From a virus, in the IMG/VR virus record IMGVR_UViG_3300029516_000012: DNA of 40,916 bases, one strand, 5' to 3'. The position numbers were made by a program, and so were the translations under genes. Below are positions 1 through 33,343 of the stretch, piece after piece (within the stretch, counting starts at the first letter, position 1; each line of letters opens with the position of its first letter). The notes under the pieces were generated by a model. The model was not told the DNA's origin. It searched no databases and saw only the letters and a list, made by a program, of their open reading frames with translations.

Positions 1-79
1 GGACGTGCCGCGCTGGCGGGATATTCGTACATTGACGGGAGAAAGTTTTTATGAAAAGACAGGACTACGAACAGTTGAC
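1..79. repeat. Terminal direct repeat, copy 1 (identical to 40838-40916). Marks a circular or circularly permuted genome; likely an assembly overlap.
   Basis: Read directly: both ends spell GGACGTGCCGCGCTGGCGGGATATTCGTACATTGACGGGAGAAAGTTTTTATGAAAAGACAGGACTACGAACAGTTGAC. An ORF open at the 3' end continues in frame at base 2. Confidence 0.95.
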
Positions 80-649
80 GTTATTTCGGGCGGATTCCCC
101 TGCCAGCCACACAGCGTTATCGGGAAACGGCTTGCAGAAAATGATGAACGGCACTTATGGCCAGAGTTCCTGCGAGTTATTGACGAATTGCGGCCGAGGT
201 ATGTTGTTGGCGAAAATGTTAATGGCATCTTATCTACAATACATGAGTCCATTTGCACCGATTTGGAAAAAGAAGGATACGAAGTCTGGACGTTCAGTAT
301 TCCGGCTTGTGCTGTCGGAGCGCACCATGAAAGATACAGGGTTTGTATTCTTGGCATCTCCAAGGGCAAGTCAGGACTTCAAGCCGATCCGCAGGCAGAC
401 ACCACAGGAGCACAGCGGAAAACACGGACAAACGCTGAGCGCCAGCCTTGGAATTATCTTCCCGGAACGTATTGGGCAGTACATCACCCCCCAGTTTGCG
501 GAATGGATGATGGGATTCCCGATTGGATGGGGGGATATCCGCAGTACAAACAGTGGATGCAGTGTTACGGAAACGCCGTAGTCCCCCAACAGTTTTACCC
601 GATCTTCCAGGCCATAGCGGACATAGAGAGGGGAATTATACATGGATGA
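2..649 (+). CDS. dcm: DNA (cytosine-5)-methyltransferase, C-terminal part. It continues 40662-40916 across the circular junction.
   Basis: Frame-2 translation carries motif IV GGFPCQPHS, motif VI GENV, motif VIII-like HHERYRVCILG and motif X YGNAVVPQ. No restriction endonuclease gene is seen nearby, so it looks like an orphan methyltransferase. Confidence 0.9.
   Translation, partial: DVPRWRDIRTLTGESFYEKTGLRTVDVISGGFPCQPHSVIGKRLAENDERHLWPEFLRVIDELRPRYVVGENVNGILSTIHESICTDLEKEGYEVWTFSIPACAVGAHHERYRVCILGISKGKSGLQADPQADTTGAQRKTRTNAERQPWNYLPGTYWAVHHPPVCGMDDGIPDWMGGYPQYKQWMQCYGNAVVPQQFYPIFQAIADIERGIIHG
51..581 (+). other. 176-codon +1-frame ORF nested entirely inside the methyltransferase gene. Either an overprinted or recoding candidate, or a chance open frame.
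   Basis: ATG at 51 is preceded by GGGAGA (37-42) with an 8-nt spacer. Its translation contains DSPAS, SPRASQ and ITPQFAEWMMGFPIGW, the last being motif-IX-like text for C5 methyltransferases. See findings. Confidence 0.25.
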
Positions 650-1949: not shown

Positions 1950-2361
1950 ACCAAGAATTGCGCAGGTGCTGGGAGTAGAGGTCGGAGAGGATGTCAAATA
2001 CCGACATACAGATGGAACAGCAGAAAATATTTGTGTTTGTGAGGATGGGCGGGTTATTATTTCTTCTCTTTCATGCAAAATGTCAACCGTTGCTGTACTT
2101 ATAAATGCCATCAACCACCCAGACCGCATCATCCGAAAGCCCCGCTGGACGGAGCAGGAGGTGGAGAGGGCGAAGGCTATCAAAGTGCTATATCCAGTTG
2201 TTAAAACATTGGCATACGTTGATATAGTGGGACAGACATTTTACATGTATGATGACGAAGACAACTATAAGGGCAGTCTTGATAACCTTGATGAAACGTT
2301 CCCTACGCTGAGGAGCATAAGGCGGGCCACATTGGACGAGATCATCGGAGGTGCCCAATGA
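1942..2361 (+). CDS. Hypothetical protein
   Basis: Track ORF 1867-2361. The in-frame GTG at 1942 follows GAGGAGGA and fits the gene packing better than the ATG at 1867. Confidence 0.5.
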   Translation: MDKPRIAQVLGVEVGEDVKYRHTDGTAENICVCEDGRVIISSLSCKMSTVAVLINAINHPDRIIRKPRWTEQEVERAKAIKVLYPVVKTLAYVDIVGQTFYMYDDEDNYKGSLDNLDETFPTLRSIRRATLDEIIGGAQ

Positions 2362-2777
2362 CCAGAGAAATACTTTTCAAAGCCAAGCGGCTGGATAATG
2401 GCGAGTGGGTGAAAGGAAGCTTGATTTCGTTTGCAGATGGAGGGCGATCGATTTTACCATCTGAGAGTGCCGTGCTTTACAAGAAGGGCGAGTCTCTTTT
2501 TTCTACTGTAAATTGCCTTGAGGTCGACCCTTCCACGCTCTGCCAGTACACCGGCCTGACCGACAAGAACGGCGTGAAGATTTTTGAGGGTGATATTTTG
2601 AGCTACAACGGATCAAGAGAGCCAGTTATTTTTAACACAGATCTCAGAATCCCATGTTTCACAACTGGAATTGGAAGCGGAAGCAGCACCCCACTACATC
2701 CGTACAAACTGAGCAAGCGCCATTTTGTCATCGGCAACATCCACGACGGGGAGGGCGGACAGCATGAGGAGGGATAG
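2358..2777 (+). CDS. YopX-family protein
   Basis: ILFKAKRLDNGEWVKG ... YTGLTDKNGVKIFEGDIL ... VIGNIHD matches the YopX N- and C-terminal signature text. Confidence 0.8.
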   Translation: MTREILFKAKRLDNGEWVKGSLISFADGGRSILPSESAVLYKKGESLFSTVNCLEVDPSTLCQYTGLTDKNGVKIFEGDILSYNGSREPVIFNTDLRIPCFTTGIGSGSSTPLHPYKLSKRHFVIGNIHDGEGGQHEEG

Positions 2778-2780
2778 CAC

Positions 2781-2999
2781 TTGAACGAGTTCCGGGAGAG
2801 ATTGAAGAAGTTGAGGGAGAAGGAAGGGACACAGCCCTGTGTTCTCGCGGAGCTATGTGGCATCAGCAAGAACTCAATTTTGAGATATGAGCGGGATGGA
2901 GTGATTCCTGAAATAGTATCTGTTGTAAAAATAGCAGACCATTTCAATGTATCTGTGGATTACTTGCTAGGAAGAACAGACGATCCAAAAGCAATGTAA
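2781..2999 (+). CDS. XRE-family helix-turn-helix transcriptional regulator (TTG start)
   Basis: 72 aa. LRERLKKLREKEG..QPCVLAELCGISKNSILRYERDG..P ... LADHFNVSVDYLLGRTD is a textbook HTH_3 pattern. Confidence 0.8.
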   Translation: MNEFRERLKKLREKEGTQPCVLAELCGISKNSILRYERDGVIPEIVSVVKIADHFNVSVDYLLGRTDDPKAM

Positions 3000-3187
3000 C
3001 CTTCAGAAAATAGATGGTATACGTGAAGAATGGGATGAATTAGTTTCCCCCATAAATGTAGCGTTGCAAGATAAACTCCGCTTTGAGCATCCAATTACAT
3101 ACCGAATTTATAGAAGCTGGGAAGATTTAGAAGAATACCAACTTATAGGAATATCTAAGGCGAGAGCTGCATTGGAGGGCAAGAAAA

Positions 3188-3795
3188 ATGTTTAGCTTTA
3201 GTGATAACAGAAAAACAGTTAGCGAAATATTTACAATGTTCGATGAAAAAAAGCTGATTGTTGATGATAGCTATCAGCGCCGTTCCGTATGGAGCGAAAA
3301 AGACAAAGTACGTTTAATAGAAACTATTTTACTCCAATTAGTTATTCCAGAACTTTTTTTCTGGAGGGCTGACACTGATCCCGAAACGGGTGCATCTATT
3401 ACGCATATTGTTGATGGACAGCAAAGAATAAAGGCAATCTATTCTTTCATCAACAATGAGTTCAAGTTGAAATCGCAATTTTTATTGGATGACAGCATTA
3501 AGAAAGCTTACGCAAATAAATATTTTAGAGATTTAGATACTGAAACGAGAAAAACTTTTTGGAATTACCCATTAATGATAATAGAAATTGATTCCAAAGC
3601 AACTCGTGATGATATCATTACTATGTTTAATCGTCTTAATCTTACAGATTATAACCTAAACGATCAAGAAAAAACGGAATAGCGTATCTGGCGAATTTGC
3701 GGCACTTGCAAGGGAAATTTCTAACAATCCGTTATGGGACGAAAGGCGGCTATTTACTGGCCCGGATGTAAAGCGTATGAACTTTTCATTATTTC
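3188..3795 (+). pseudogene. DUF262 (GmrSD/BrxU-type N-terminal, ParB-like) domain gene, frameshifted and 3'-truncated
   Basis: DDSYQRRSVWS ... HIVDGQQRIKAIY is the DUF262 signature. The frame stops at TAG 3680-3682, just after an A6 run (3669-3674). With one A fewer the reading continues QEKRNSVSGEFAALAREISNNPLWDERRLFTGPDVKRM. Family-like text ends at the AT-to-GC composition break near 3795. No DUF1524/HNH half is present. Confidence 0.65.
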
Positions 3796-4630
3796 ACAGA
3801 AAAAGTTGCTGTGATTCCCTCGTGAGGGAATCGGAGAGCATGGTATATGCGAAAATGGGAGTGTGGGAGCGTGTGCCCCTGCGCTCCCATTCCCCTTCCT
3901 CCTTCACACGGATGGGGTGGCGTCGGTGCATCTGCCGCCACCCCCTCTGTGTGCAATATGCCGCCGGTCGAACACCACCCCACTATTCGGGGCATGAGGG
4001 GTCGCACCCTTCGGGCGGCGAATGACGGTGGAAAGACACTACACCAGATTGCTGGAGCGTCTAGGCGCTGGGAAGAGTAAGACGCGAGCCGCCTGTCATG
4101 GGGGCGGAGCTAAAAAAGCGGTGGCAGCTATGACCTGCCCCGGTGTGCCGACACATAGAAAGCGGCTGCGCCCGGCGGAGCGTGTAGAGACGGAATCCGC
4201 CGATATGCAGGAGCCAGAAGCAGGGTGATCTCCAGGCTGTGCAACTCAGTCCGCCTGCTATATTGGGTCGCTCCCATCCGTGGAAGCCGGACGCTTGTGT
4301 AGGGCGATAGCTACCAGCGCTATCCCGCTGAAAACTACCCTGCGAGTGGCTAATCATGATGTCGCCGCCAAGGCTAGGGCGTGACAATCTAAGCGGGAAG
4401 CGCACATATACCGAGTGCAGTAGCAGAAGCGGAAGCGGCGGCCCGTTACGTCGCGGACGTGTGGCGGCTCAATGCCGCCTCTCGGCTCCAAACGCAGATG
4501 GAAAGCAAAAGAGGTACTGCGCGATTAAATTAAATGCCAATGGGCGGCTGGACAACCTACTGTCCGCCATATGCCGCTCCTCGCCACCTGAGGCGGGCGG
4601 TGGCACCACAAGCGCACGAGCTGGAGAGGG
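3796..4630. ncRNA. Candidate large structured non-coding RNA, class and strand unassigned
   Basis: No credible ORF; the six-frame ORFs of 60-114 aa are Arg/Pro/Gly/Cys-rich and lack SD sequences. GC is about 63 percent (3901-3960) against 25 percent in the adjacent islet (3301-3360). Perfect local stems are dense: 3813-3820/3825-3832, 3864-3871/3882-3889, 3914-3922/3936-3944, 4173-4179/4196-4202, 4463-4468/4474-4479, 4583-4588/4599-4604. CCC-UUCG-GGG lies at 4007-4015. Confidence 0.4.
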
Positions 4631-4657
4631 CAAAAAAGCCGCCCCAGGAGGGGCGGC
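4631..4657 (-). terminator. Rho-independent terminator of the minus-strand operon 5326-4662
   Basis: GCCGCCCC-AGGA-GGGGCGGC (4638-4657) is preceded on the + strand by A6 (4632-4637). This gives a hairpin plus U-tract when read on the minus strand, immediately after the stop at 4662. Confidence 0.8.
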
Positions 4658-4661
4658 AGGA

Positions 4662-5141
4662 TTAGCTCAGAATTTCTTTCAGCTTGTCCAAATTCCCGGC
4701 ATTGGGGCTGACCTTGCCGCTCTCCCAGCGGGATATCACGGCCTGGTTAACGTCCATCGCATCCGCAAGCTGGGCTTGAGTCAAGCCTTTGGCCTTTCTG
4801 GCGGCGGAAATATCAAACTCGACAGACGCAAGGGGGCGCTTGCCTTTACCGGCAAAATAGCCTAACTGCCAAGCCCCCTGCATTTCAAGGGGCTGGAACT
4901 TTTCAGACCCTCCCTCCACGGGCGGGTCAATGCTGGTGATCTCGCAAAGCGCCTCAGCAACCTGCCGGTCGAGATCCCTCTTTAGGAGGCCAAGCCTGTG
5001 AGCATCAGAAATGACTCTGGCGAGTGCTGTATACGGGCGCTGAGCGGCAAGGGTGAGATCCCCTCCGATCTCCTGCGGATATGCCGCCGCGTTGAGCCGA
5101 CCGAACACCCAGCCAAACACGTATGCTCCTCTGTTTGTCAT
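4662..5141 (-). CDS. DNA-binding protein with a C-terminal XRE-type HTH and an unknown N-terminal domain (candidate secondary repressor)
   Basis: The C-terminus KGLTQAQLADAMDVNQAVISRWESGKVSPNAGNLDKLKEIL is an HTH_3 pattern. The ATG at 5141 sits 10 nt after AAGGAGG and shares one base with the upstream stop. Confidence 0.75.
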   Translation of the reverse strand: MTNRGAYVFGWVFGRLNAAAYPQEIGGDLTLAAQRPYTALARVISDAHRLGLLKRDLDRQVAEALCEITSIDPPVEGGSEKFQPLEMQGAWQLGYFAGKGKRPLASVEFDISAARKAKGLTQAQLADAMDVNQAVISRWESGKVSPNAGNLDKLKEILS

Positions 5142-5326
5142 CAGCAACCGACCTCCTTGAAATAACGGTATTCCATTTCGTCATAAACATTGACCTTGAT
5201 CTCAACCTTGCTGTCAGGATACTGGGAGGCATAACGAGCGGCACAATCCTCGGCTCCCTTCTTGTCGTCCATATAAGCACCCATCATCCAGCCGTCTTTG
5301 CAAACGCAATATTCATAGTGTTTCAT
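5141..5326 (-). CDS. Small hypothetical protein (61 aa), first gene of the minus-strand operon
   Basis: ATG is preceded by GGAGG with a 7-nt spacer and follows a consensus promoter. The gene is translationally coupled to the HTH gene. Confidence 0.6.
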   Translation of the reverse strand: MKHYEYCVCKDGWMMGAYMDDKKGAEDCAARYASQYPDSKVEIKVNVYDEMEYRYFKEVGC

Positions 5327-5368
5327 GACTTTACCTCCTATATTGTTCCTTTTACTTTTTATGACTTA

Positions 5369-5396
5369 ATTATATCATAAAATATGATATTGTCAA
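5369..5396 (-). promoter_or_regulatory. Near-consensus sigma-70-type promoter with an operator palindrome in its spacer
   Basis: The minus strand reads TTGACA (5396-5391), a 16-nt spacer, then TGaTATAAT with an extended -10 (hexamer 5374-5369). The spacer holds the inverted repeat ATATCAT-N5-ATGATAT (5372-5390). Confidence 0.65.
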
Positions 5397-5417: not shown

Positions 5418-5560
5418 GCCGCCCCGCAGTTGCAGGAGACGGGGGTGGCCCAATGAGAGGAAACGCATGGCGGGATATTCCCCCGCCGCCTCTCAAACAA
5501 AAGATCAGGGCTAGGCCGACGGGCCGAAAAGGGAGGTGCCACCTTACTCCCCTGCCCTGA
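5418..5560 (+). promoter_or_regulatory. Structured GC-rich 5' leader upstream of the antirepressor gene
   Basis: Nested stems: 5418-5425/5442-5449 (contains a G-T wobble valid only in + sense), 5455-5460/5489-5494 enclosing 5469-5474/5482-5487, and 5505-5511/5554-5560 enclosing 5514-5517/5522-5525 and 5531-5535/5547-5551. Confidence 0.35.
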
Positions 5561-5604
5561 GTCAACATAAAGGTGGGAAATAAAATAGAAAGGGTGGTAT
5601 CTAC

Positions 5605-6243
5605 ATGAACGACTTGATGATTTTTAAGAACCCTGAGTTTGGGGAGATTCGTACTGTGGAATTGGCCGGGGAGCCGTGGCTGGTGGGAAAGGATGTAGCC
5701 GAGGCGCTTGGGTACAGCAATCCGCGGGATGCGCTCGATCGACACGTGGATAACGAGGATAAAGCTGCCGTCGGGATTCACGACGGCAGCCAGTCCAGAA
5801 ACATGACCATCATCAATGAGAGTGGCCTGTACTCCCTGGTGTTGTCCAGCAAGCTGCCTGGGGCAAAGAAGTTCAAGCGCTGGGTGACGAGTGAGGTATT
5901 ACCCAGCATTCGCAAGCACGGAGCTTACATGACCTCGGACACGATCGACAAGATGATAAACTCTCCGGAGTTTGGCATCAAACTGCTTACTGCGCTGAGA
6001 GACGAGCAGGATAAGAGAAAGGCACTGGAGACTGAGCTGGATAGGAGCAAGGAGTGGTACTCCATTAAGCGTGTAGCAAATCTGAACGGAGTATCACACA
6101 AGAAGTTTGACTGGAGGAAACTAAAGAGCGAAAGCTCAAATATGGGTTATGAAGTAAGAAAGATTTTCGACGCCAATTATGGCGAAGTCAATACTTATCA
6201 CATGAGAGTGTGGGAAAAAGTATATCCGAACATGGAGCTATAA
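5605..6243 (+). CDS. Phage antirepressor, BRO-N domain protein
   Basis: MIFKNPEFGEIRTVELAGEPWLVGKDVAEALGYSNPRDALDRHVDNEDK is the BRO-N/AntA-type N-terminal signature. Confidence 0.85.
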   Translation: MNDLMIFKNPEFGEIRTVELAGEPWLVGKDVAEALGYSNPRDALDRHVDNEDKAAVGIHDGSQSRNMTIINESGLYSLVLSSKLPGAKKFKRWVTSEVLPSIRKHGAYMTSDTIDKMINSPEFGIKLLTALRDEQDKRKALETELDRSKEWYSIKRVANLNGVSHKKFDWRKLKSESSNMGYEVRKIFDANYGEVNTYHMRVWEKVYPNMEL

Positions 6244-6577: not shown

Positions 6578-6997
6578 ATGGCTGCACGGCTGACAGACAG
6601 ACAAAAAAAGAAAATTGTGGCTGATTATCTGGAGACCGAGAGCTATAACGCCACGGCGAAAATCAATGGGGTTTCCAAAGATACCGTTAAGCGTGTTGTG
6701 TTAGGTTGCGAAGGATTCGCCCAAAAGGCGCAACAAAAAAAGAGACAAAACACGCTTGATATGCTGGCCTTCATGGAGACCCGCAAGGAGAAGATGCAGG
6801 AGGCGATCGACCTACACCTGATGGCGCTGACAGACCCGGAAAAGATAAGTGATGCCGGTTTGTCTCAAATCGCCACTTCTTTCGGGATTATCGTTGACAA
6901 GGCCACAAAGAACACAGCCAGCGGGAACGACAGTTTGAATAAACTGGACGGGCTGTTGAAGGAGTTCAGGGATGCTGTTAAGTCTGAAACAAACTGA
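6578..6997 (+). CDS. terS: Terminase small subunit (putative)
   Basis: 139 aa, immediately upstream of and overlapping terL. The N-terminal HTH-like text is YNATAKINGVSKDTVKRVV. Confidence 0.6.
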   Translation: MAARLTDRQKKKIVADYLETESYNATAKINGVSKDTVKRVVLGCEGFAQKAQQKKRQNTLDMLAFMETRKEKMQEAIDLHLMALTDPEKISDAGLSQIATSFGIIVDKATKNTASGNDSLNKLDGLLKEFRDAVKSETN

Positions 6998-8180
6998 ATT
7001 TGTCCGAAAGGGGCATCACCGCTGGAACTTTAAGGGAGGGGCTACTCGTTCGGGGAAAACATACCTTGATTTTCGGTGGATTATCCCAATCCGCATCCGG
7101 GAGCGCGTCGGGAAGGATGGGCTGACGGTCATCCTTGGAGTCACCAAGTCCACCATTGAGCGGAATGTGCTTGAGCCTATGCGAACGATCTATGGTGATG
7201 CTCTTGTTGGCACGATCTCCAGCGACAATACGGCGTGGATATTTGGGGAAAAGTGCTACTGCCTTGGAGCTGAAAAGGTTTCCCAGGTCTCGAAAATCCG
7301 CGGCGCGTCCATCAAATACTGCTACGGCGACGAGGTGGCAGACTGGAGCCAGGAAGTCTTTGAACTGCTGAAAAGCCGCCTGGATAAAGCGTATTCATGC
7401 TTTGACGGTACGTACAATCCACAGGGGCCGAATCACTGGCTGAAAGTGTTTCTGGACAGCAAAGCGGATATTTTTAGCCAGACGTACACAATTGATGATA
7501 ATCCGTTTCTCCCAGAGGCTTTTGTGGAGAACCTAAAGCGGGAGTATCGAGGAACGGTTTTTTACGACCGTTATATTTTGGGACGGTGGGCGCTGGCCGA
7601 GGGACTAATCTACCCCATGTTTGGCGAGAGCAACATCGTGGACGAGGTTCCGGAGAATGGAGAATACTATATCTCCTGCGATTATGGCACATTGAACCCG
7701 TTTTCCGCCGGGCTGTGGTGCTGGGACGGCAAAAACGCCACCAGAATCCGGGAGTATTACTATTCCGGGCGGACGGAGCAGATCAGCAAGACAGACGAGG
7801 AATACTACACGGAATTGGAGAAGCTGGCTGGGGATTTGCCGGTGCGATCCGTAGTAGTTGACCCATCGGCAGCTTCGTTTATCGAGGTCATCAGACGGCA
7901 TCGGCGGTTCCGGGTACAAAAAGCGGTCAATGATGTGGTTCCCGGCATCGTCACCACCAGCCGCTACATTCAGGACGGGACGATCAAAGTTAACCGCTCC
8001 TGCAAGGACGGTATCCGTGAGTTTGGGCTATACCGCTGGGACGATAAATCCACGGAGGACAAGCCAATCAAGGAGAACGACCACGCCATGGACGATATTC
8101 GCTATTTTGTAATGACGATTCTGCGGCACAAGGTACGTAAGGCAAGCCAGCCGCAATATATCCTGCTGTGGGGGAGGTGA
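6972..8180 (+). CDS. terL: Terminase large subunit (PBSX-type)
   Basis: Walker A GGATRSGKT near the N-terminus, C-terminal nuclease-like DHAMDDIRY, and position upstream of the portal gene. Confidence 0.9.
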   Translation: MLLSLKQTEFVRKGHHRWNFKGGATRSGKTYLDFRWIIPIRIRERVGKDGLTVILGVTKSTIERNVLEPMRTIYGDALVGTISSDNTAWIFGEKCYCLGAEKVSQVSKIRGASIKYCYGDEVADWSQEVFELLKSRLDKAYSCFDGTYNPQGPNHWLKVFLDSKADIFSQTYTIDDNPFLPEAFVENLKREYRGTVFYDRYILGRWALAEGLIYPMFGESNIVDEVPENGEYYISCDYGTLNPFSAGLWCWDGKNATRIREYYYSGRTEQISKTDEEYYTELEKLAGDLPVRSVVVDPSAASFIEVIRRHRRFRVQKAVNDVVPGIVTTSRYIQDGTIKVNRSCKDGIREFGLYRWDDKSTEDKPIKENDHAMDDIRYFVMTILRHKVRKASQPQYILLWGR

Positions 8181-26166: not shown

Positions 26167-26227
26167 GGAGGACGTGAGGATACAGGGTTGGTACACGTCG
26201 CCGCCCTCCTCACGGACTCCTTATTTT
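26167..26227 (+). promoter_or_regulatory. Second terminator/attenuator-like hairpin upstream of the cargo cassette
   Basis: GGAG-GA-CGTGAGGA (26167-26180) pairs with TCCTCACG-GA-CTCC (26207-26220) across a tandem GA/GA internal loop. It is followed by TTATTTTAT, the same tail as the terminator at 26144. Confidence 0.4.
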
Positions 26228-32985: not shown

Positions 32986-32991
32986 CAAAAA

Positions 32992-33016
32992 CCGACGGGA
33001 GCGTCATTCCCGTCGG
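32992..33016 (+). terminator. Stem-loop after the Cro-like gene (weak terminator candidate)
   Basis: CCGACGGGA-GCGTCAT-TCCCGTCGG is a 9-bp perfect stem, but there is no clear U-tract. Confidence 0.4.
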
Positions 33017-33343
33017 CCTCTGCCCAAATTTGTTTACCCTATGTACCTTGCAGGCTTTCACCGCTTGTAATGACGCCACAAGCTTCTTGAGGCACCAAGC
33101 CACTTTTGCGGTTTTGGTTCCGCCAATGCCTTATCGCTGACAAGCCACAAGGAGTACTTGATACGGTGGGGTATGATTACCGGCATACCACCATGGGTTT
33201 TACCTCTTCTCTGAGTGCTCCGCCGTATCAGTTGCTACATTTTACGCCAGTTTACGTGCTTTGGCAACCACTATATGCGACCTTGCAGTAAGGGAGCAGG
33301 CATAGTCAAAAGTTGGGTCAAGTCGACCAACTCCTTTCTGTGC

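Follow-up and report, generated by a model that had tools for sequence, protein, structure and literature searches.

A candidate class of modular non-coding RNA associated with the tRNA islands of gut Oscillospiraceae phages

Large structured RNAs of bacteria and phages that have no known function are rare, and GOLLD and ROOL are the closest described systems for the locus presented here. GOLLD is a structured RNA encoded beside or within transfer RNA (tRNA) islands of phages and prophages; it combines variable and conserved parts, contains pseudoknots and kissing loops, and its function is not known (PMC12286853). ROOL is also phage-borne, lies near tRNAs and contains multiple pseudoknots (PMC12286853; PMC5737381). 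Both of them form RNA-only nanocages that assemble through kissing loops (PMC12286853), and a covarying loop-loop pairing of ROOL later proved to be an intermolecular bridge in the nanocage (PMC12286853; PMC5737381). The role of these RNAs for the phage is still obscure, partly for want of convenient genetic systems. In this study, we analysed a block (positions 3796-4630) in a 40,916-nucleotide (nt) stretch of viral DNA, IMG/VR record IMGVR_UViG_3300029516_000012, which is called the window hereafter. A preliminary description of this stretch had proposed the block as a candidate for a large structured phage RNA of unassigned class. We consider it probable that the block represents, in the window, a modular locus for non-coding RNA that is conserved and forms part of a phage tRNA island. 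Matching no catalogued family, this locus may be a new RNA class and a large phage RNA of the GOLLD/ROOL kind.

Homologs were collected by BLASTN against phage genomes and by exact-pattern scans of IMG/VR, metagenomes and the GTDB representatives, which together gave more than 230 homologous loci from two Flavonifractor plautii phages, IMG/VR and human-gut metagenomes. BLASTN revealed two F. plautii prophages, Castelnaud and Chenonceau, in which the corresponding stretch has a 'transcriptional regulator' gene on one side and HNH or anti-repressor, terS and terL genes on the other. The IMG/VR loci came from three exact-pattern scans, and their total is a lower bound; metagenomes contributed 116 loci, nearly all of them from the human gut. 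Among the GTDB species representatives, a 24-nt core pattern had a single match, in Muriventricola aceti, and a search of plasmids detected no relatives. The host range looks narrow, though the 24-nt search pattern was strict.

The position of the block was examined in the 181 loci that contain its domain D (Table 1). A homolog of the HTH regulator was encoded upstream on the same strand in 103 of these loci (median -655 nt, 45% amino acid identity), while TerS and TerL were encoded downstream in 41 and 45 loci, with amino acid identities of 54% and 37.5%, respectively. By comparison, the RNA modules showed 82-99% nucleotide identity among homologs. Synteny and identity taken together thus revealed that the genomic position of the block is constant even though the proteins encoded beside it have strongly diverged among the phages, and that the block is conserved far better than the flanking genes. 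The locus marks the junction between early and late genes in temperate phages of Flavonifractor and related gut Oscillospiraceae.

The + strand of the block was predicted to fold at -338.4 kcal/mol, with z = -2.97 relative to dinucleotide-preserving shuffles (z = -1.91 for the - strand with the same kind of control). This agrees with the initial impression of more structure than expected by chance, and the stronger evidence is conservation with compensatory changes in the homologs. In the alignment of 47 distinct copies of core domain B, 98.6% of the cells were paired, compared with 32-49% when the 3' partners were slid by 1-3 columns, and five pairs in stem S1, the pseudoknot and hairpin H3 were changed on both sides. 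RNAalifold, independently of the structure named here, recovered H0, the pseudoknot stem and H3.

The loops of H3 and H4 are complementary to each other, and a strand-oriented census of 235 loci showed that this complementarity is kept in six forms: GUCAUGG/CUAUGAC (151 loci), GUCAUAG/CUAUGAC (34 loci), GCCAU/AUGGC (18 loci), UCAUGG/CCAUGAC (15 loci), GCCUC/GAGGC (2 loci) and GUCUC/GAGAC (2 loci). Non-complementary combinations (GUCAUAG with CCAUGAC, GCCAU with AUGAC) occurred in none of the 235 loci. The stems that carry these loops are fully replaced between forms (GGCAG/CUGCC, GUGGC/GCCAC, GGUGG/CCACC, GACUC/GAGUC, AUGGGA/UCCCAU and CCGAC/GUCGG). The 47-core set had been fetched with a seed inside H4, and the loops were rechecked in loci fetched by a seed in D. 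In some loci S1 and the pseudoknot are missing, and D directly follows H3 and H4. As another partner of the H3 loop, AUGAC at the 5' end of core B (4023-4027) was considered and rejected, since it is constant while the H3 loop changes, whereas the H4 loop does change. In most forms the H3-H4 linker has 1-7 nt, yet the loops pair over 5-7 bp, and the H4 loop of the common form has each of its seven bases engaged in this pairing. Intermolecular loop pairing is a serious possibility because coaxial kissing would set the stem bases far apart; on this geometric argument, the pairing would be difficult within a single molecule, and the loops may instead join separate molecules into dimers or closed rings.

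Domain D, a long irregular hairpin with a hypervariable tip, provided similar evidence. Across 88 distinct variants, 92.5% of the cells were paired, as compared with 31-55% in slid controls, and double changes were found at five pairs (55 cells). G-U and U-G pairs are frequent in D, with 52 G-U at one pair, and the stems accept G-U but not A-C. Double changes were also present at 2-4 pairs each in A1/A2, T1, E and F. Because G-U wobbles are common and the + strand folds better, + is identified as the RNA strand, and the block is read as RNA in this orientation. We also searched the window for trans targets of the single-stranded motifs GUGACAAUCUAAG and GUGGAAAGACACUAUAC, and obtained only self or chance-level matches.

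All the stems that the preliminary description had listed are present in the sequence, including CGGCGGA/TCCGCCG (4173-4179/4196-4202), ACGTC-GCG-GACGT (4448-4460), the bulged hairpin at 4302-4326, and those at 4463-4468/4474-4479, 4543-4568 and 4583-4588/4599-4604. The same is true of its further motifs, namely the CCC-UUCG-GGG motif (CCCTTCGGG, 4007-4015), the 9-nt complement 3907-3915/4274-4282 and the repeat CGCTCCCAT(T)CC at 3882 and 4269. Several of these stems, however, are not among the conserved ones. The CCC-UUCG-GGG motif, the 3907/4274 complement and the 4583/4599 stem are not conserved in the homologs and look copy-specific or due to chance; the last is an alternative pairing that is possible only with the loop variant of the window. 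The tRNA connection, the pseudoknot and the kissing-loop interactions did not figure in the preliminary description.

The block is non-coding. It contains no credible open reading frame (ORF), and GC content rises from 0.36 (3001-3500) to 0.61 (4001-4500) across its left border, in line with its initial characterization as ORF-free, GC-rich and dense in hairpins. The ORFs that overlap it have 43-169 amino acids, and seven of them were searched against Pfam and PHROGs with nothing at E ≤ 1 except one chance-level match (0.16). Homologs differ by indels of 1, 2, 4, 8 and 12 to 14 nt and by swaps of whole modules, so that no reading frame is conserved; this indel pattern, together with the covariation, excludes coding. 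As had been anticipated for a genuine RNA, the block is conserved beyond this genome and none of the homologs collected has a long intact ORF here.

To compare the block with catalogued RNAs, the whole window was searched with Rfam 15 at the gathering score, and the region 3500-4900 at E ≤ 10 with permissive filters; 24 homolog loci were searched as well, 13 at the gathering score and 11 at E ≤ 1 with permissive filters. At the gathering score no match fell in the block, the only matches in the window being FuFi-1, RAGATH-31 and int-alpA elsewhere, and at E ≤ 10 only eukaryotic microRNA, small nucleolar RNA and long non-coding RNA models appeared at chance level in 3500-4900. Neither GOLLD (RF01998) nor ROOL (RF03087) matched the window (gathering score; E ≤ 10 over 3500-4900) or the 24 homolog loci, where tRNAs were the only matches inside the element. 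Models of group I and II introns, HEARO, OLE, raiA, T-box, RNase P, Y RNA and pRNA gave no match at E ≤ 10, so the proposal that the block belongs to an unassigned class has stood up to this check. A resemblance to RNase P RNA (a GGAAAG motif) was considered and rejected, both for want of an Rfam match and because the core is not large enough. ARAGORN found neither tRNA nor transfer-messenger RNA (tmRNA) in the window or in loci L001 and L002 (the latter from Chenonceau), and with its tmRNA search switched on it reported only tRNAs among 109 element loci. The tmRNA models of Rfam had no match in the window, and no reading frame for a tag peptide was found. A literature search, which did not reach subscription-only papers, found no prior description of the element, and there is perhaps a small chance that it is already listed somewhere.

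Comparison of the window with its homologs revealed sharp and recurrent breakpoints that divide the block into modules. In the 109 loci first analysed there were 89 module orders, with C, E and V as optional modules, and the minimal form was A - (T1 or tRNA) - B - D - F (e.g. L087 and L101). What recurs in the family is a core of about 200-400 nt, comprising the kissing hairpin pair, D, usually the pseudoknot domain, and a 3' CCA minihelix, within a block of about 750 nt whose modules are exchangeable. The description of the block as a large structured phage RNA of unassigned class thus holds for the conserved + strand structure and the lack of an Rfam family. A single RNA of 0.8 kb is not supported as such by the homologs, which present a mosaic whose modules are separated by tRNA-like units and, in many phages, by genuine tRNA genes. 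In L042 a second partial core B lies about 680 nt downstream of the first, and L304 has two F minihelices; therefore, tandem duplication occurs within the island.

Leader hairpin A1 is kept in L006, L020 and L001 despite quite different sequences, and the stems of A2 show G-U/A-U/G-C exchanges, with alternative hairpins at this place in other phages. Among 38 variants of A1 and A2 folded by RNAalifold, 98.5% of the cells were paired and four pairs had double changes. RNAalifold also pairs CUCCU of the CU-rich linker with the 5' GGGAG (3857-3861), positions that hardly vary; alternatively, the linker may act as a free anti-Shine-Dalgarno mimic. The inverted repeat 5' of A1 could serve the upstream genes as a terminator-like hairpin, or it could be an operator, and its membership in the RNA is putative. 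The insert C is present or absent as a whole or in parts, with exact junctions at 4143|4312. The 3' end of C3 (GGGCGAUAGC) is complementary to the 5' strand of the closing stem of D (GCGCUAUCCC), and the hairpin at 4302-4326 competes with this conserved stem (4317-4329/4392-4403). Copies with C can form two mutually exclusive pairings because of this complementarity, which could serve as a conformational switch. At 4265-4275, C3 also includes a hairpin that resembles a T arm, GGGUCGCUCCC. The motif GGG-UCGC(A/G/U)-CCC, likewise a hairpin, recurs in T1 (4002-4006), in C3 (4269-4273) and ahead of D in variants without B (e.g. L227 and L236), and could be a shared tertiary-contact or protein-binding motif. 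The spacer V is found in most loci that carry E and never without E.

The connection with tRNAs became evident from the homologs. The preliminary description had stated that no tRNA is adjacent, which is correct for the window but not for the family: 47 of 104 loci have at least one tRNA within 1 kb (flanks of 1 kb on both sides), and 61 of the 62 tRNAs concerned are on the + strand. Real tRNAs reported by ARAGORN in homologous elements include Gln-UUG, Met-CAU, Ile-GAU, Thr-UGU, Arg-CCG, Ser and Trp. tRNA-Arg (CCG) can take the place of T1, ending directly before core B, tRNA-Ile (GAU) lies about 60 nt further upstream behind a hairpin-bearing spacer, and tRNA-Thr, Met or Gln are situated between D and E/F or past F. 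An encoded CCA is absent from tRNA-Ile and most tRNA-Arg upstream of B and present in the downstream Thr, Met and Gln tRNAs. Several loci contain odd ARAGORN tRNAs (L041, L042, L113 and L123, in all four upstream of core B, as well as L275, L292, L328 and L240). Some of them were reported with 2-nt or 4-nt anticodons ('tRNA-???(aa)', '(ga)', '(aata)'), and one is tRNA-SeC(tca)-like; they could function in suppression or recoding, or else be additional decoys that resemble tRNAs.

The window copy has lost all genuine tRNAs and contains three tRNA-like units, T1, E and F. None of them was scored as a tRNA by ARAGORN or Rfam; they have acceptor-like and T-like helices and no full cloverleaf, and each is preceded by AUAU or AUAC. 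T1 lacks a D arm and a CCA, and its T-like stem covaries (GGAGG/CCUCC, GGGG/CCCC, GAGAGG/CCUCUC; four pairs with double changes). E is present or absent as a unit, with 99% paired cells and four pairs with double changes among its 45 variants; in Castelnaud it closes the series of modules in front of the HNH gene and ends in UCCA. F is a 12-bp acceptor/T-stem minihelix (67-78 variants) whose inner stem covaries in L304 (CUUAUC/GGUAAG) and whose position 4:69 is G-U or U-U. Its 3' strand, CGGUGGC-A-CCA, resembles CGGUGGC-U-CCA of tRNA-Thr. In Chenonceau (L002 3119-3168), a tRNA-Thr minihelix with acceptor, D and T arms and encoded CCA, from which the anticodon arm has been precisely deleted, stands in place of modules B to E, and may represent an evolutionary intermediate towards an F-type minihelix. 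Because of this armless tRNA-Thr and the likeness of the F 3' strand, we infer that the tRNA-like units were probably derived from tRNAs by internal deletion.

Both ends of the locus were inspected for transcription signals. In 84 distinct upstream variants listed, a NANAAT hexamer was seen by eye at a fixed distance 5' of the conserved GGGAG; its commonest form is TG-c-GAAAAT, L020 has TGgTATAAT, and the motif looks like an extended -10 promoter. At the other end, the 67 variants listed all diverge in sequence right behind the ACCA of F. The hairpin at 4638-4657 is the terminator of a gene on the minus strand (the reverse cassette, see below) and lies outside the RNA locus.

We propose that the locus would be transcribed as one precursor from its own extended -10 promoter just 5' of the first hairpin, and that tRNA-maturation enzymes would then cut this precursor. 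RNase P would act on the 5' side of each tRNA or tRNA-like unit and RNase Z after the CCA-less T1 or tRNA directly before core B (RNase Z of Bacillus subtilis acts on CCA-less precursors), with 3' trimming to the encoded CCA. Besides any tRNAs, the cuts would yield an RNA from the 5' leader and a structured core RNA (B-(C)-D, about 0.2-0.4 kb), the latter of which would act in trans during phage growth. Our preferred guess is that the core might be a self-organising RNA particle of the GOLLD/ROOL type, with copies joined by kissing loops. A bolder version is that it might constitute a third self-assembling phage RNA class beside GOLLD and ROOL, with a compact core excised from a tRNA-island transcript by tRNA-processing enzymes; this idea is tentative and we would not call it probable. 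If it is true, the CCA-adding enzyme, a synthetase or a host defence nuclease that targets tRNAs would find a tRNA-like handle in the 3' ACCA minihelix.

Several observations weigh against this interpretation. We infer the promoter, the processing sites and the discrete core RNA; a consensus scan that required a -35 element found no -35/-10 pair upstream of A1, and no + strand terminator was found after F. The extreme modularity fits several small RNAs as well as one large RNA: some loci have D without B, B precedes D in no more than 121 of 167 loci, and F comes downstream in 96 of 150. C and V are without covariation, the variants being too few (17 for C1, 4 for C2-C3 and 10 for V). The covariation elsewhere comes mostly from a shallow clade in which many pairs are invariant, and the shuffle controls ignore relatedness. 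Furthermore, a role linked to tRNAs would not hold for the window copy, which has none.

Several other explanations were considered for the same data. The locus might lack any functional core RNA and be a plain phage tRNA operon, with spacers, processing scaffolds and eroded pseudo-tRNAs, of which the window copy is a decaying remnant. This is in accordance with the interleaving of tRNAs and modules in many homologs, with the resemblance of T1, E and F to degraded tRNAs (as well as the tRNA-Thr of Chenonceau without anticodon arm and the tRNA-Thr-like 3' strand of F), and with the absence of tRNAs from the window and the highly variable module content. On the other hand, B and D are not tRNA-like and are better conserved than the flanking proteins, the compensatory changes by which the pseudoknot and the loop-loop pairing are kept would be unexpected of a spacer or remnant, and tRNA-free copies nearly identical to that of the window occur on many independent contigs. 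We regard a mere tRNA operon as unlikely on these grounds. It also seems quite improbable that the block is a cis-acting leader of the late (packaging/structural) operon, a structured RNA placed closely behind a late promoter and governing read-through or stability into terS and terL, e.g. by antitermination like that of HK022 put. Known put-type elements have about 70 nt, not several hundred, and stable RNAs made by processing are suggested by the conserved ACCA 3' end and the tRNA punctuation. A reverse HTH cassette with a strong terminator intervenes in the window and in 25 other loci, so that a strict cis link is not kept. In favour of a leader are the location, with the HTH regulator on one side and terS/terL on the other and all in one orientation, the promoter-like motif followed at once by two hairpins, and the lack of a + strand terminator after F.

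The strand-specific signal also bears on the idea of an element that acts at the DNA level, such as a cos/pac packaging site, a site of attachment or recombination, or an array of operators. The block is located just upstream of the terminase genes, which is frequently the place of cos/pac sites, and the module junctions act as recombination points; but stems that tolerate G-U and not A-C reveal a strand asymmetry, the pseudoknot and the loop-loop complementarity would be meaningless in duplex DNA, and co-oriented tRNA genes imply transcription through the locus, all of which makes a DNA element very unlikely. A decayed protein-coding gene has hardly any probability in our view: what speaks for it are the overlapping ORFs of up to 114-169 amino acids and the small hypothetical proteins called by PHANOTATE over the homologous stretches of Castelnaud and Chenonceau (two or three tiny ones), whereas similarity to Pfam or PHROGs entries and homologs with a long intact ORF here are both lacking, indels are not multiples of three, and substitutions in stems are compensatory rather than synonymous. 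As for a very divergent GOLLD or ROOL that was missed by the Rfam models, the genomic habit is shared (phage, tRNA island, pseudoknots and kissing loops; PMC12286853; PMC5737381), but the negative searches of the window and of the 24 homolog loci described above, together with a conserved core much smaller than either RNA, render this highly improbable.

The interpretation as a modular RNA locus within a tRNA island places the element close to several described RNAs and, at the same time, sets it apart from each of them. With the large ornate phage RNAs it shares that it is phage-encoded, adjacent to tRNAs (in the family) and pseudoknotted with a covarying structure, and the earlier suggestion of a GOLLD/ROOL-like lifestyle is borne out by its occurrence in phages and tRNA islands, its pseudoknots and its covarying kissing loops. 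Compared with GOLLD, whose model is unmatched and which exceeds 800 nt, the core here has about 0.2-0.4 kb, and tRNA-like punctuation, a 3' end formed by a CCA minihelix and hosts among gut Oscillospiraceae are specific differences. ROOL, the model of which is likewise unmatched, has six multistem junctions together with three pseudoknots, while the present element is a linear chain of hairpin domains. The locus therefore bears the genomic signature of GOLLD and ROOL, with sequence and architecture unrelated to both.

More distant likenesses exist with other RNAs. Two T4 RNAs, RNAC and RNAD, are co-transcribed with tRNAs and matured from tRNA precursors. Located as two small RNAs in the tRNA region of phage T4, they have no known role (PMC3014915). 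They too are stable non-tRNA RNAs inside a phage tRNA region, and are set apart by the unrelated phage and host and by their much smaller size. In phi29, each pRNA molecule has two loops that are complementary across related phages and pair between molecules into a ring. H3 and H4 show the same signature of loop covariation; the differences are that no Rfam match exists, that normal terS/terL packaging genes are present here, that locus and size differ, and that the pairing here may be either within or between molecules. Finally, tRNA-flanked small RNAs, MALAT1-mascRNA and tmRNA resemble the element in that acceptor/T-arm mimics bound a non-tRNA RNA whose ends RNase P and RNase Z could set, and, like tmRNA and tRNA, the element ends in an encoded NCCA. 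It differs from tmRNA in having its wobble at 4:69 and not at the alanine identity pair 3:70, and the processing proposed here is a prediction.

Table 1. Structural features of the block and genes of the window around it (stems as 5' strand/3' strand).
Feature	Positions	Strand	Remarks
'up' inverted repeat	3813-3832	+	GATTCCCT-CGTG-AGGGAATC; different but palindromic sequence at the same place in homologs
Promoter-like extended -10	3848-3856	+	TG-c-GAAAAT; predicted start ~3862
A1, 5'-terminal hairpin	3857-3889	+	core stem 3864-3871/3882-3889 (TGGGAGCG/CGCTCCCA)
CU-rich linker	3890-3908	+	CCUCCUU; in all variants, length varies by 12- to 14-nt indels
A2, second leader hairpin	3905-3953	+	outer 3905-3911/3947-3953; inner 3914-3922/3936-3944 (GGGGTGGCG/CGCCACCCC)
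T1, tRNA-like unit	3959-4020	+	many variants
T1, acceptor-like stem	3960-3965/4014-4019	+	
T1, anticodon-arm-like stem	3978-3981/3989-3992	+	
T1, T-arm-like stem	3996-4001/4007-4012	+	
B, core domain	4021-4143	+	alignment of 47 distinct cores
H0	4028-4030/4037-4039	+	RNAalifold; U-A to C-G in two sequences
S1	4044-4047/4068-4071	+	G-C/A-U/C-G changes
Pseudoknot stem (H-type)	4057-4061/4081-4085	+	S1 loop to downstream strand; C-G/U-A and U-A/C-G/G-C changes
H3	4089-4093/4103-4107	+	C-G/U-A changes
H4	4123-4127/4135-4139	+	
Loop-loop (kissing) pairing	4095-4101/4128-4134	+	GUCAUGG with CUAUGAC, 7 bp
C, optional insert	4144-4311	+	C1 4144-4208, C2 4209-4263, C3 4264-4311
D, long irregular hairpin domain	4312-4408	+	88 distinct variants
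D, closing stems	4317-4321/4399-4403 and 4323-4329/4392-4398	+	
D, internal-loop strand CUGAAAACU	4328-4336	+	almost invariant
D, inner stem	4337-4341/4376-4380	+	recovered by RNAalifold
D, internal-loop strand GUGACAAUCUAAG	4381-4393	+	almost invariant
E, tRNA-like unit	4409-4492	+	45 variants, optional
E, acceptor-like stem	4410-4415/4481-4486	+	
E, T-arm-like stem	4463-4467/4475-4479	+	
E, encoded U-CCA	4487-4490	+	
V, spacer with hairpins	4493-4567	+	e.g. 4543-4568
F, acceptor/T-arm-like minihelix	4568-4608	+	3' boundary of conservation
F, outer stem	4573-4578/4599-4604	+	GCCGCU with GGUGGC
F, inner stem	4580-4585/4592-4597	+	CUCGCC with GGCGGG
F, A-CCA	4605-4608	+	
C5 methylase gene	5-649		window gene
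YopX gene	2358-2777		window gene
HTH_3 regulator gene	2781-2999		upstream of block
GmrSD_N gene	3188-3682		AT-rich, frameshifted and truncated; between HTH_3 regulator and block
HTH_3 gene, reverse	4662-5147	-	downstream of block
Small reverse gene	5141-5326	-	61 amino acids
Bro-N anti-repressor gene	5605-6243		
terS-like gene	6578-6997		
TerL gene	6972-8180		

The gene set around the block is that of a temperate phage (Table 1), and some of its neighbours have features of their own. The remnant of a GmrSD_N/DUF262 gene (3188-3790, +) has about 36% GC, a DGQQR motif and a stop at 3682, and past a run of A near 3668 (…KKKRNSVSGEFAALAREISNNPLWDERRLFTGPDVKRM…) its reading resumes in the +1 frame, to end near 3790. 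By its looks, a foreign gene of defence type, frameshifted and truncated, was inserted here after the HTH regulator and ahead of the RNA locus; the same remnant adjoins the RNA in several IMG/VR homologs. The reverse two-gene cassette (4638-5396, -) is an insertion that separates the RNA locus from the genes for the anti-repressor and terminase; it consists of the HTH_3 gene and the 61-amino-acid gene and has a perfect TTGACA-16-TATAAT promoter at 5396-5369 and a strong terminator at 4657-4638. The cassette is present at about 99% identity in the 25 other loci mentioned above and absent from many, and looks like a mobile 'moron'-like or immunity-type module. Of the Rfam motifs elsewhere in the window, an int-alpA RNA (RF02996, 51.8 bits) is located at 5504-5573 (+), directly 5' of the Bro-N anti-repressor gene, and also follows the RNA locus in Chenonceau (L002 ~3430-3495). 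FuFi-1 (126.3 bits, 32986-33144, -) and RAGATH-31 (81.6 bits, 26167-26220, +) are Rfam motifs whose function is not known.

The locus is abundant in human-gut metagenomes, and its recognition corrects the annotation of deposited phage genomes, where the stretch is covered by small 'hypothetical proteins'. Versions of the element are carried by prophages of F. plautii YL31 (Castelnaud and, in reduced form, Chenonceau), which are induced in the OMM12 mouse microbiota (PMC10197239). Since these are inducible prophages in a cultivable bacterium of a gnotobiotic model, deletion, expression and structural tests are feasible. The natural shuffling of modules provides a ready-made deletion series that points to the indispensable parts. 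More generally, the tRNA-like punctuation of the locus suggests a general route by which phages may obtain stable non-tRNA RNAs through the tRNA-maturation machinery of the host.

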